A stretch of 64,000 bases of DNA from Escherichia coli (GTDB lineage Bacteria; Pseudomonadota; Gammaproteobacteria; Enterobacterales; Enterobacteriaceae): assembly GCF_017348835.2 (NCBI RefSeq), contig NZ_CP071375.1. The stretch is one strand, 5' to 3'. A program made the translations under genes and the position numbers. Shown here one piece after another: positions 54,058 through 55,065 of the stretch. The first letter of the stretch is position 1; the number at the start of each line of letters is the position of its first letter. The notes under the pieces were generated by a model. The model was not told the origin of the DNA, did not search any database, and worked only from the letters and a program-made list of their open reading frames with translations.

Positions 54058-54202
54058 GGTCTTCTCGCAAGTCGAAAAATATGACGCTACTTTAGCGTAA
54101 TTGCTTGATTTTGTCGCTGATGGCGAAGGAGAAGAAAATTCAGGAAATGGATAAAGTAGTTATTTAGAAATGAGATATTTTTGAAGGAAATTTTTTGGAG
54201 AA

Positions 54203-54337
54203 GATGGTGCATCCGGGAGGATGACTCACTGGCGTTCGCCCTTCGGGCCGTTGCTAAAGCAACGTTATCCTTCCTGGTGCCTGCGATTAATTCCGCTACC
54301 TCTTCGATATCTTCATTGCTGAAGATTTCGGAGAATA
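54203..54337 (-). repeat. About 135-bp tRNA-linked repeat (copy 1): tRNA-Arg 3'-end mimic plus long hairpin, downstream of argQ
   Basis: Begins with tRNA-Arg acceptor-like TGGTGCATCCGGGAGGAT; inverted repeat CCGGGAGGAT...ATCCTTCCTGG; near-identical to copy 2. Confidence 0.6.
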
Positions 54338-54414
54338 TGGTGCATCCGGGAGGATTCGAACCTCCGACCGCTCGGTTCGTAGCCGAGTACTCTATCCAGC
54401 TGAGCTACGGATGC
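54338..54414 (-). tRNA. argQ: tRNA-Arg (anticodon ACG)
   Basis: Reverse complement GCATCCGTAGCTCAGCTGGATAGAGTACTCGGCTACGAACCGAGCGGTCGGAGGTTCGAATCCTCCCGGATGCACCA. Confidence 0.93.
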
Positions 54415-54475
54415 ATCGGGAAAATTTATTTTACTGCTGATATTGATATCGCTACTAAAGCCATATCAAGTAAGA

Positions 54476-54612
54476 GATGGTGCACCAGGGAGGATTACTC
54501 GCCTTGCGGCTCGCCCTTCGGGCCGTTGCTGGCGCAACGTTATCCTCCCTGGTGCCTGCGGTTAATTCCGCTACCTCTTCGATATCTTCATTGCTGAAGA
54601 TTTCGGAGAATA
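54476..54612 (-). repeat. About 135-bp tRNA-linked repeat (copy 2) between argZ and argQ
   Basis: TGGTGCACCAGGGAGGAT ... ATCCTCCCTGGTGC perfect 13-bp inverted repeat enclosing about 45 nt; shares the 3' 60 bp with copy 1. Confidence 0.6.
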
Positions 54613-54689
54613 TGGTGCATCCGGGAGGATTCGAACCTCCGACCGCTCGGTTCGTAGCCGAGTACTCTATCCAGCTGAGCTACGGATGC
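54613..54689 (-). tRNA. argZ: tRNA-Arg (anticodon ACG)
   Basis: Sequence identical to argQ copy. Confidence 0.93.
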
Positions 54690-54751: not shown

Positions 54752-54828
54752 TGGTGCATCCGGGAGGATTCGAACCTCCGACCGCTCGGTTCGTAGCCGA
54801 GTACTCTATCCAGCTGAGCTACGGATGC
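54752..54828 (-). tRNA. argY: tRNA-Arg (anticodon ACG)
   Basis: Sequence identical to argQ copy. Confidence 0.93.
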
Positions 54829-54892: not shown

Positions 54893-54969
54893 TGGTGCAT
54901 CCGGGAGGATTCGAACCTCCGACCGCTCGGTTCGTAGCCGAGTACTCTATCCAGCTGAGCTACGGATGC
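54893..54969 (-). tRNA. argV: tRNA-Arg (anticodon ACG)
   Basis: Sequence identical to argQ copy. Confidence 0.93.
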
Positions 54970-54972
54970 AAA

Positions 54973-55065
54973 TGGCGGTGAGGCGGGGATTCGAACCCCG
55001 GATGCAGCTTTTGACCGCATACTCCCTTAGCAGGGGAGCGCCTTCAGCCTCTCGGCCACCTCACC
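54973..55065 (-). tRNA. serV: tRNA-Ser (anticodon GCU), long variable arm
   Basis: Reverse complement GGTGAGGTGGCCGAGAGGCTGAAGGCGCTCCCCTGCTAAGGGAGTATGCGGTCAAAAGCTGCATCCGGGGTTCGAATCCCCGCCTCACCGCCA. Confidence 0.93.

Follow-up and report, generated by a model that had tools for sequence, protein, structure and literature searches.

What are the two structured elements that follow argZ and argQ in the serV-argVYZQ operon, and what happens to them once they have been transcribed? The window (the whole stretch of DNA that was analysed, 64 kb of an Escherichia coli genome) contains four identical tRNA-Arg(ACG) genes and one tRNA-Ser(GCU) gene, identified by ARAGORN and Rfam, which lie on the minus strand in the order serV-argV-argY-argZ-E2-argQ-E1, where E2 and E1 denote the two elements (Table 1).

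The elements and their place in the operon

E2 begins 1 base past the CCA of argZ and E1 begins 1 base past the CCA of argQ, both on the minus strand; the 64 nt argV-argY spacer and the 62 nt argY-argZ spacer contain no repeat element. A sequence-only reading of this locus had described two elements of about 135 bp that differ from these spacers, and both observations hold, with measured lengths of 135 nt (E2) and 133 nt (E1). The span it proposed, 54203-54612, ends at the correct nucleotide and starts 2 nt too far out. It had also placed the elements inside a transcribed operon, which is borne out: E1 and E2 both lie, with near certainty, within the serV-argVYZQ transcription unit, and there is similarly little doubt that E2 is transcribed, because the tRNA genes on either side of it are both expressed from the upstream promoter.

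E1 and E2 are identical at 122 of 135 positions (90.4%). The identical stretch they share is 51 nt (54287-54337 and 54562-54612); the shared stretch had thus been correctly noticed, but it is shorter than the 60 bp reported, and it forms the 5′ part of the transcribed element rather than a tail. On the plus strand, the elements start with TGGTGCATCCGGGAGGAT (E1) and TGGTGCACCAGGGAGGAT (E2), which correspond to the reverse complement of the tRNA-Arg 3′ end, AUCCUCCCGGAUGCACCA. In the transcript, the E1 tail matches this 3′ end at 18/18 positions and the E2 tail at 16/18, in agreement with the proposed copy of the tRNA-Arg T-stem and acceptor 3′ strand; at the E2 position, the tail is an 18/18 match in K-12, RM9872, SCPM and OkiPb01707. 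The interior of both elements is a conserved module, AACGUUGC-N4-GCAACGGCCCGAAGGGCGA followed by a small GC hairpin. GCAACGGCCCGAAGGGCGA is present exactly in E1 and in E2, and the core 19-mer occurs twice in the window at up to 3 mismatches, compared to 0.09 occurrences expected by chance.

The predicted fold of the E2 transcript has a perfect 14-bp stem that encloses three small hairpins and leaves ACCA unpaired (-69.9 kcal/mol, z = -9.6), where the stem is perfect because of the two changes in the tail (G>U and A>G). E1 is predicted to form the same closing stem with three mismatches (z = -3.1), and the first 55 nt of the elements fold into two more hairpins. The z-scores support the stable structure anticipated for the minus-strand transcript. 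Of the long, nearly perfect stem-loop that had been described, the fold-back is retained and the single long stem-loop is replaced by a stem that closes three hairpins; the description as nearly perfect fits E2 alone, in a handful of strains, and does not fit E1. In particular, an exact match to the 83-nt body of E2 is found in 1 of the 5,358 E. coli genomes having a match, and the perfect-stem variant in one or two of ~5,400 complete genomes. The perfect 14-bp stem of E2 is a rare, strain-specific variant. Its interpretation as a sign of minihelix selection was considered and is weakened by this rarity, together with the mismatches in the acceptor-like part of 22-23 of 25 arg-type repeats. 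Further, the 5′ arm (GCACCAG+GGAGG) looks like the acceptor 5′ strand of tRNA-Arg (GCAUCCG, with 2 changes) joined to the 5′ strand of the T-stem (GGAGG), with matches at 10/12 positions, a degree of similarity that pairing with the tail alone would enforce.

Table 1. Positions of the tRNA genes, the two repeats and their parts in the window
Feature	Position	Strand	Basis
serV, tRNA-Ser(GCU), heads the operon	54973..55065	-	ARAGORN; Rfam tRNA 56.8 bits
argV, tRNA-Arg(ACG); followed by a plain 64-nt spacer here and by a TLR in K-12	54893..54969	-	ARAGORN, Rfam, K-12 comparison
argY, tRNA-Arg(ACG); followed by a plain 62-nt spacer	54752..54828	-	ARAGORN, Rfam
argZ, tRNA-Arg(ACG); CCA abuts E2	54613..54689	-	ARAGORN, Rfam
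argQ, tRNA-Arg(ACG), final tRNA gene; CCA abuts E1	54338..54414	-	ARAGORN, Rfam
Spacer between E2 and argQ, 63 nt	54415..54477	-	Alignment with the plain spacer after argY
E2, TLR in the argZ-argQ spacer, 135 nt, orthologue of K-12 raZ	54478..54612	-	RtT bits (below gathering score), core match, fold, K-12 comparison, TLR naming in PMC8144298 supplement
E2 hairpin X1, CUCCGAAAUCUUCA-GCAA-UGAAGAUAUCGAAGAG	54576..54609	-	Fold; both-sided changes in 7/13 pairs (25 arg-type repeats)
E2 hairpin X2, GCGG-AAUUAA-CCGC	54558..54571	-	Fold; both-sided changes in 4/4 pairs
E2 5′ arm GCACCAGGGAGGAU, pairs with the tail	54542..54555	-	Inverted repeat, fold
E2 conserved TLR core, hairpins B + C + D	54501..54539	-	Alignment to Rfam RtT model positions ~60-130
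E2 hairpin B, ACGUUG-CGCC-AGCAACG	54524-54539	-	Invariant in 25 arg-type repeats
E2 hairpin C, GCCC-GAA-GGGC	54513-54523	-	Invariant in 25 arg-type repeats
E2 hairpin D, GCC-GCAA-GGC	54501-54510	-	Covarying in 25 arg-type repeats
E2 tail AUCCUCCCUGGUGCACCA, tRNA-Arg 3′ end copy with 2 changes	54478..54495	-	Comparison with tRNA-Arg
E1, TLR after argQ, 133 nt, orthologue of K-12 raQ	54205..54337	-	RtT bits, core match, fold, tail 18/18
E1 hairpin X1	54301-54334	-	
E1 hairpin X2	54283-54296	-	
E1 5′ arm	54267-54280	-	
E1 hairpin B	54249-54264	-	
E1 hairpin C	54238-54248	-	
E1 tail	54205-54222	-	

Membership of the tRNA-linked repeats

E1 and E2 are almost certainly tRNA-linked repeats (TLRs), an enterobacterial family, and correspond to the arg-operon copies raQ and raZ of K-12. 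The arg repeats are already known: after its first description in 1978, the family was catalogued in 1999 and taken up again in 2021, with the arg copies included. The 2021 account cites Egan & Landy 1978 and Rudd 1999 as sources for the family, applies the TLR name to 22 repeats distributed over ten K-12 loci, among them raV/raZ/raQ, describes the tRNA-operon copies as having no known function, and gives as the hallmark an 18-19-nt identity with the 3′ end of the linked gene; its supplement lists raQ/raZ/raV within a deletion that removes argY/Z/Q (PMC8144298). The sequence-only reading had not recognised the elements as members of a named family.

The assignment is based on the tail that copies the tRNA 3′ end, on the location of both elements directly downstream of a tRNA- or rRNA-operon gene on the same strand, on core homology with other members, as both elements align to the Rfam RtT model, and on orthology to the catalogued TLRs of K-12, which carries repeats at the corresponding junctions behind argV, argZ and argQ. 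A tail-only search of K-12 located 5+1 lys, 4 tyr, 3 arg, 1 pro and 3 serX repeats, and every one of their tails matches at 18/18 positions; moreover, 14 of the 14 tail-located lys, tyr, arg and pro TLRs carry a shorter, 18-nt form of GCAACGGCCCGAAGGGCGA, GCAACGRCCCGRAGGGYG, with at most one change. The scores against RtT (RF00391) are 30.0-33.5 bits for E2 and 21.2-27.0 bits for E1, below the gathering score of 45, and the K-12 arg copies score 22.8-31 bits, compared to 101 for proK, 47-60 for lys and 46 for serX. The alignment of the arg form covers only model positions ~49/60-130, with long identical runs, and the complete RtT architecture (5′ arm, T′-hairpin, hairpins A, B, C and D, tail) is absent from it: the arg 5′ arm runs straight into hairpin B.

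Comparison to the nearest relatives refines this placement. Like the K-12 TLRs, E1 and E2 lie immediately behind a tRNA gene and on its strand, have the 18-nt tail and the common core, and are matched by K-12 copies after argZ and argQ; they differ in that K-12 has three arg copies, with an extra one after argV, where this strain has two, and in that the E2 tail carries two substitutions here and its closing stem is perfect. RtT/rttR of the tyrT operon (RF00391) belongs to the same family, with hairpins B, C and D and the GAGUAAUCC junction in common, and the K-12 tyrT operon is laid out similarly, with one repeat between its last two tRNA genes and three past the last gene. The RtT tail, however, derives from tRNA-Tyr and the arg tail from tRNA-Arg; the arg form, scoring 21-33.5 bits against the required 45, has neither the T′-hairpin nor hairpin A of the ~130-nt model; and the tyrT repeats bear an annotated 29-aa tpr ORF, whereas the arg form has no tpr-like ORF.

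The 5S-linked TLRs RrA, RrB and RrF also share the core and a tail that copies the 3′ end of the upstream RNA, but there the tail is the 5S rRNA 3′ end and the repeats are located behind a terminator, between terminators T1 and T2 of rrnA, rrnB and rrnD (PMC8144298). RrA/B/F are the only TLRs whose ends have been mapped, whose half-life has been measured and whose binding partners have been tested. In particular, their 5′ ends lie 3 nt past the 5S end and their 3′ ends 3 nt past the repeated 18 nt, the half-life is ~2.5 min, and recognition of the repeat by RNase E has been proposed (PMC8144298). A more distant parallel is 3′ETS-leuZ (Lalaouna et al. 2015, as cited in PMC8144298), an RNA freed from a tRNA precursor by processing nucleases, as the arg repeats may be; it differs in being a sponge encoded at one locus that base-pairs with known sRNA targets, and in having neither a tRNA-3′-end copy nor the TLR core.

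The TLRs occur in ~22 copies beside the most highly transcribed E. coli genes, and no function has been assigned to the tRNA-operon members. The present analysis adds that the arg copies are the shortest TLR form, missed by Rfam-based annotation, that their copy number is polymorphic among strains, and that the core reaches beyond the Enterobacterales.

Conservation across loci and strains

A genome scan of 120 fetched loci yielded 171 core matches; a few of the loci were disregarded, as they represent chance hits to coding sequence of unrelated phyla (Archangiaceae, Clostridia, Rhizobiaceae, Actinacidiphila and others). Across the 171 matches, the tail after the core equals at least the final 15 nt of the adjacent upstream tRNA gene for tRNA-Tyr (53 matches), Lys (40), Arg-ACG (19), Pro (10) and Glu (3), and approximately a dozen further matches end in the 5S rRNA 3′ end; the tails follow species-specific tRNA variants. 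The interior ~45 nt is common to repeats on tRNAs for Tyr, Lys, Pro, Glu and Ser and on 5S rRNA. Overall, the core was found with at least 8 kinds of stable-RNA genes, in the gammaproteobacterial orders Enterobacterales, Orbales, Oceanospirillales, Alteromonadales and Vibrionales. It comes after the T-loop TTCGA in fragments from at least 7 tRNA species, or GAGAGUAGG in 5S fragments, and is always preceded by the inverted complement of the host gene's 3′ end. Copies at different loci within one genome diverge greatly outside the core. In Yersinia nurmii (L033), a long form carries GAACCGAGCGGUCGGAAGUUCGA before the core, a 23-nt stretch of the tRNA-Arg 3′ half that comprises the anticodon-stem 3′ strand, the variable loop and the 5′ half of the T-arm.

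The arg-repeat hairpins are under constraint at the RNA level. Among 25 arg-type repeats from 13 genera, compensatory changes occur in hairpins X1, X2 and D; 85% of cells are paired, compared to 33-48% in slid controls, and none of 500 shuffles reached the observed covariation. The primary sequences of hairpins B and C are nearly invariant across TLR types, from Escherichia to Gilliamella, Marinobacterium and Aestuariibacter. Two positions in the outer, acceptor-like part of the closing stem are unpaired in 22-23 of the 25 repeats, so the imitation of the tRNA end is imperfect, and this imitation may be of no importance.

It is beyond reasonable doubt that the number of arg repeats differs among E. 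coli strains, ranging from one to three: K-12 and RM9872 have three, the strain of the window, F2_81, SCPM and OkiPb01707 have two, and ST131 has one. TL20 has a single copy with an internal deletion, and in OkiPb01707 the terminal copy is absent, with a boundary exactly at the CCA junction.

Proposed mechanism and rival explanations

The best overall explanation, with a probability of roughly three in four, is that E1 and E2 are TLRs that act as co-transcribed dummy tRNA ends, excised by the tRNA 3′-end machinery and gained or lost by recombination. Each copy consists of a 55-nt leader with two hairpins, the 5′ arm, a TLR core of three small hairpins and the tRNA-3′-end copy, where pairing between the 5′ arm and the copied end lets the RNA display an imitation acceptor/T-arm end of tRNA-Arg. 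RNase E is an endonuclease with a site preference, and cuts just past the CCA of tRNA precursors. The imitation 3′ end is followed by a U and a pyrimidine/A-rich stretch, as are real tRNA ends, suggesting that RNase E would cut right after the repeat as well. Such a cut would free the repeat as a discrete, short-lived RNA, and would leave argQ with a 62-63-nt leader like those of the other units; the sequence fits this dummy-unit layout, as the 63 nt after E2 and the plain spacer after argY are identical at 60 of 63 aligned columns. Copy number would shift when the tRNA 3′ end undergoes recombination or slippage with the identical tail of the repeat, and also through unequal crossing-over of tRNA-plus-repeat units. 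The arg copies would then be dispensable, self-homogenising passengers of tRNA gene arrays that require no trans-acting function. A literature search found no experiments on the arg copies, and their processing and stability are extrapolated here from the 5S-linked members. The suggestion of RNase processing sites or an RNA by-product, made from the sequence, agrees with the leading idea for the TLR family in the literature (PMC8144298).

That this account of a processing mimic and by-product is the whole story is given slightly less than even odds. In its pure passenger form, it leaves unexplained both why the sequences of hairpins B and C vary so little between TLR types and between taxa and how one core came to lie within fragments of many stable-RNA genes. 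There is a slim chance that the core is more than a passenger, namely a sequence-invariant RNA module of ~45-60 nt placed within tRNA T-loop or 5S 3′-end fragments. If so, its distribution over stable-RNA genes and bacterial orders would imply a dedicated route for moving or copying it between such genes and a sequence-specific protein or RNA partner that reads hairpins B and C, and the role of the imitation tRNA end would be to bring the module out by way of tRNA processing. With a specific partner for the core, the TLRs would constitute a growth-rate-coupled output of stable-RNA operons.

The sequence-only reading had favored decayed tandem duplicates of a tRNA-Arg gene whose remains became structured spacers, an interpretation that stands for the last 18 nt, probably extends to the 5′ arm, which resembles acceptor and T-stem strands joined together, and finds some support in the tRNA-Arg stretch retained ahead of the core in the Yersinia long form. 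It does not stand for the ~45-nt interior, which has no tRNA-Arg counterpart and is shared with the Tyr, Lys, Pro, Glu, Ser and 5S repeats; the pseudo-tRNA hits it suggested looking for are missing, with zero matches on either element from the tRNA covariance model (RF00005, E-value up to 10) or ARAGORN, and core invariance across bacterial orders is not expected from random decay. Decay is therefore judged unlikely as the full origin of the elements. It is similarly improbable that the arg repeats are functional sRNAs, such as a regulator or sponge whose invariant core captures a protein or RNA. The near-invariant hairpins B and C and the compensatory changes in X1, X2 and D would suit such a role, as would an output tied to growth-rate-controlled tRNA promoters, and the family offers a precedent: RrA/B/F were predicted, and shown in vitro, to bind CsrA and Hfq (PMC8144298). 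In the same study, however, the 19 tRNA-operon TLRs have predicted CsrA-binding scores below 0.01 and are stated to have no known function, an earlier stringent-response claim for rtT is noted to have been withdrawn, and strain TSS107 has all 22 TLRs deleted (PMC8144298), so the TLR set is not essential. Moreover, strains tolerate one to three arg copies and an internal deletion, and the structure prediction places the arg-repeat GGA triplets within the paired closing stem.

The elements could instead be footprints of a small mobile or insertion-prone module that entered the T loop, or a site near the 5S 3′ end, and left a duplicated gene 3′ end as its flank. The constant position of the core after TTCGA or GAGAGUAGG, always behind the inverted complement of the host 3′ end, is compatible with insertion, as are the 18-nt direct repeats that flank the unit and the precise presence or absence at the CCA junction in OkiPb01707. 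This origin is nevertheless rather improbable: the analysis revealed neither an enzyme nor terminal inverted repeats, nor any recent identical copies at unlinked loci, the non-core sequence is very different between loci of one genome, direct-repeat recombination explains the precise loss equally well, and unequal crossing-over accounts for tandem arrays. T loops are known integration sites, and a related candidate, an integrase att-site scar, was rejected as a reading of its own and survives only within this improbable mobility account; no integrase context was seen, and the reading is unfit because the core occupies the middle of the would-be crossover segment. A short peptide is hardly credible, whether encoded by AUG AAG AUA UCG AAG AGG UAG in X1 or by a tpr-like basic frame across the core. 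Both copies contain a six-codon X1 ORF and the tyrT repeats bear tpr, but a Shine-Dalgarno sequence is absent, the AUG sits within a stem, and the ORF varies between copies (MKVWKRWR in K-12 raV, MKVSKR in raQ); because it is not conserved and substitutions track base-pairing rather than codons, the coding interpretation is rejected. Finally, it is very improbable that the hairpins are transcription terminators or attenuators of the operon. E1 does follow the final tRNA gene, and other TLRs adjoin intrinsic terminators, for example after lysQ, lysV, proK and serX; E2, however, lies between argZ and argQ, both necessarily transcribed, and no U tract follows the stem of either element. A minus-strand scan found no intrinsic terminator within E1 or E2, and on this ground, together with the position of E2 between expressed tRNA genes, the terminator reading is rejected; the sole terminator-like site on that strand is weak and is located at 54098-54084, 107 nt past E1.

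Two tRNA-linked repeats follow argZ and argQ

The serV-argVYZQ operon carries two elements, E2 directly after the argZ CCA and E1 directly after the argQ CCA, confirming the two copies and the location given in the sequence-only reading, with small corrections. The elements are 90.4% identical; the identical stretch previously put at 60 bp is real, and comprises the first 51 nt of the two transcript copies. The tRNA-Arg 3′ end AUCCUCCCGGAUGCACCA is repeated at the end of each element, matching at 18/18 positions in E1 and 16/18 in E2. Spacers of 64 nt (argV-argY) and 62 nt (argY-argZ) contrast with one of 198 nt between argZ and argQ, lengthened by E2 at its start. In an alignment of the 63 nt after E2 with the plain spacer that follows argY, 60 of 63 columns are identical; within the tRNA array the repeat therefore acts like one more dummy unit. 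The 511-nt query has 100% identity to E. coli strain PE164 and matches in 5,425 of 5,426 complete genomes.

Features of the operon and its surroundings (window coordinates)
Feature	Coordinates	Strand	Basis or remark
csrA	~55381 upward	minus	
serV	54973-55065	minus	ARAGORN + Rfam
argV	54893-54969	minus	ARAGORN + Rfam
argY	54752-54828	minus	ARAGORN + Rfam
argZ	54613-54689	minus	ARAGORN + Rfam
E2	54478-54612	minus	135 nt
E2 six-codon ORF	54585-54605	minus	in hairpin X1
E2 5′ arm	54542-54555		
E2 tail	54478-54495		
argQ	54338-54414	minus	ARAGORN + Rfam
E1	54205-54337	minus	133 nt
E1 six-codon ORF	54310-54330	minus	in hairpin X1
Terminator-like site	54084-54098	minus	6-bp stem, 3 GC pairs

Both elements are tRNA-linked repeats (TLRs), E2 being the raZ repeat and E1 the raQ repeat; they are catalogued members of a known family and not new. 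Parsing of E. coli K-12 places elements after argV, argZ and argQ, and a K-12 search with tails only recovered 5+1 lys, 4 tyr, 3 arg, 1 pro and 3 serX repeats, every one of them with an exact 18-nt tail. Rfam gave no tRNA-like signal in E1 or E2, even at E-values up to 10. The model of RtT, the tyrT-operon repeat (RF00391), aligns to both below its 45-bit threshold (E2, 30-33.5 bits; E1, 21-27 bits), with long identical runs at model positions ~60-130 (AACGUUGC..GCAACGGCCCGAAGGGCGA..GAGUAAUCC). Among K-12 TLRs, the pro (101 bits), lys (47-60 bits) and serX (46 bits) copies exceed the threshold and the arg copies alone do not, which explains why the latter are absent from RefSeq annotation. The K-12 tyrT locus is arranged in the same way as this operon: tyrT and tyrV have a single RtT copy between them, another three follow tyrV, and all four terminate in the tRNA-Tyr 3′ end. 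The family is described under this name by Stenum et al. (PMC8144298; Front Microbiol 2021), where Egan and Landy 1978 is cited for its first observation and Rudd 1999 for a K-12 count of 22 copies at ten loci; the same article records that a stringent-response role for rtT was withdrawn in 1994, and its strain table lists a strain with all 22 TLRs deleted, one deletion taking argY/Z/Q together with raQ/raZ/raV.

The E1 and E2 RNA folds are constrained. E2 is predicted to form two 5′ hairpins (X1 and X2) followed by a perfect 14-bp stem (GCACCAGGGAGGAU / AUCCUCCCUGGUGC) that encloses three small hairpins (B, C and D) and leaves ACCA unpaired, with a folding energy of -69.9 kcal/mol versus -37.7 for shuffles (z = -9.6). 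E1 follows the same plan, with three mismatches in its closing stem (z = -3.1). The fold-back proposed earlier is predicted to be stable, but multi-branched instead of a single long stem-loop. Covariation was counted against the E2 fold in an alignment of 25 distinct arg-type repeats from Escherichia, Enterobacter, Citrobacter, Klebsiella, Kosakonia, Phytobacter, Pantoea, Serratia, Brenneria and Hafnia. Paired cells amounted to 85.3%, compared to 33-48% with slid partners, and none of 500 shuffles reached the observed covariation, although the sequences are related and the shuffle figures overstate significance. Compensatory changes fall mostly in X1 (7/13 pairs), X2 (4/4) and D (2/3). Hairpins B and C do not vary in this set, owing in part to ascertainment by the search pattern; they are likewise conserved in the tail-based K-12 census, where the core was not used to find copies. 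In 22-23 of the 25 repeats, the acceptor-like outer stem has two positions that do not pair.

Core, tail and long forms across genomes

An exact 19-nt core, part of the interior module common to TLRs, was scanned against 100,044 species genomes, yielding at least 171 matches at no fewer than 120 loci. Among the matches listed, the post-core sequence equals the last 15 nt or more of the tRNA gene directly upstream on the same strand: tRNA-Tyr (at least 53), tRNA-Lys(UUU) (at least 40), tRNA-Arg(ACG) (at least 19), tRNA-Pro (at least 10) or tRNA-Glu (at least 3); at least about a dozen carry the 5S rRNA 3′ end. Species-specific tRNA variants are mirrored in the tails, as with UUCCUGGGUGCACCA in Hafnia and Yersinia. 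Conservation of 5S-linked TLRs was reported only within Enterobacteriales (PMC8144298); beyond Enterobacterales, core plus cognate tRNA tail (Arg-CCG, Glu, Pro, Lys) is also present in Oceanospirillales, Alteromonadales, Vibrionales and Orbales, at loci from Marinobacterium (L009), Amphritea (L110), Aestuariibacter (L115), Photobacterium (L026), Gilliamella (L048-L052) and Zophobihabitans (L058). Pectobacterium (L097 800-950, L019, L020, L098) has tandem 74-nt units with core AACGUUGCGCAGCAACGGCCCGAAGGGUGA, then a hairpin and CAUAAAAAAA; neither a tRNA nor a 5S tail is present, and the units look as though they derive from the 5S-linked form by loss of the hallmark.

Long forms retain more of the host gene than short forms. 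In Yersinia nurmii (L033 120-281), the core lies between GAACCGAGCGGUCGGAAGUUCGA and AUCUUCCUGGGUGCACCA, within the T loop of a 3′ half of tRNA-Arg, and in the 5S form between GAGAGUAGG and AACUGCCAGGCAU; upstream of the core, both carry the host 3′ end as an inverted complement. The shortest form is that of the E. coli arg repeats, in which the 5′ arm leads straight into hairpin B. Long-form TLRs, including those of K-12 at proK (L130), at serX (L128) and after lysQ (L129 1354-1509), are host tRNA gene 3′ halves whose T loop is interrupted by the core after UUCGA; ahead of them, the T arm and acceptor 3′ strand recur as an inverted complement. Often these repeats are found downstream of the tRNA's intrinsic terminator, with a second copy of that terminator after the repeat. 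The literature available to this analysis yielded no statement of this arrangement. Downstream of proK, near its TLR, L130 76-155 scores 69 bits as Rfam naRNA4 (nucleoid-associated ncRNA 4, a REP-derived family), above the gathering score.

Variation between strains

Arg TLR copy number differs between strains: three in K-12 and RM9872; two in the window strain, F2_81, SCPM-O-B-8794 and OkiPb01707; and one in an ST131 isolate and in TL20. In OkiPb01707, the last tRNA-Arg abuts sequence found after the E1 tail elsewhere; the terminal copy is missing exactly at the CCA junction, the outcome that recombination between the 18-nt direct repeats would give. The sole arg TLR of TL20 (L127), after its fourth tRNA-Arg, lacks the 5′ arm and half of hairpin B through an internal deletion, indicating that an intact structure is not needed for viability.

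The perfect E2 stem is a rare variant. Its tail has CUGGUGC in place of the tRNA CGGAUGC, which turns two mismatches with the 5′ arm into pairs and lowers the family hallmark to 16/18. The 83-nt body of E2 has an exact match in one genome; F2_81 has CUGGAGC and one stem mismatch, and the remaining E. coli examined have the true tRNA tail and two. Either selection for pairing or a quasipalindrome template-switch mutation may account for the perfect stem.

Processing and alternative readings

E1 and E2 lie within the transcription unit, and the 5S-linked TLRs (RrA/B/F) provide a precedent for their processing. RrA/B/F begin 3 nt past the 5S end, at a known RNase E site, end 3 nt past the repeated 18 nt, have a half-life of ~2.5 min and bind Hfq and CsrA in vitro; the repeated 3′ end was proposed to direct RNase E cleavage (PMC8144298). 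In the arg copies, tail and 5′ arm would imitate a tRNA end. Directly downstream come U and a pyrimidine/A-rich stretch, as they do after every real tRNA-Arg, and therefore RNase E would cut just after the repeat, releasing a short-lived ~135-nt RNA and leaving argQ with a standard leader. Copies would be gained and lost via recombination between tRNA ends and repeat tails.

The earlier interpretation as duplicated, decayed tRNA-Arg genes is correct in part; a purely decayed origin fails, since the core is common to repeats on other genes. That invariant core would suit a dedicated regulatory RNA, a possible reading that is unsupported for the tRNA-operon copies; the 19 tRNA-operon TLRs score <0.01 as CsrA binders (PMC8144298). 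A mobile module would account for the core's presence across gene types, but neither an enzyme nor recent copies were seen.

As in K-12, csrA lies directly upstream of the serV promoter region, noteworthy only since 5S-linked TLRs bind CsrA in vitro; the adjacency is probably coincidence because arg TLRs are predicted non-binders. X1 contains a six-codon ORF (AUG AAG AUA UCG AAG AGG UAG), basic like the tpr ORF of tyrT repeats; a peptide reading was rejected, as the ORF has no ribosome-binding site and is unconserved between copies or strains. A terminator reading was also rejected, the scan having found no intrinsic-terminator-like site on the transcribed strand of either element. The sole such site downstream of argQ is weak, 107 nt beyond E1 and ~25 nt before the yqaB start. 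The operon may end by Rho-dependent termination or read through into yqaB; at tyrT, Rho-dependent termination was reportedly described long ago.
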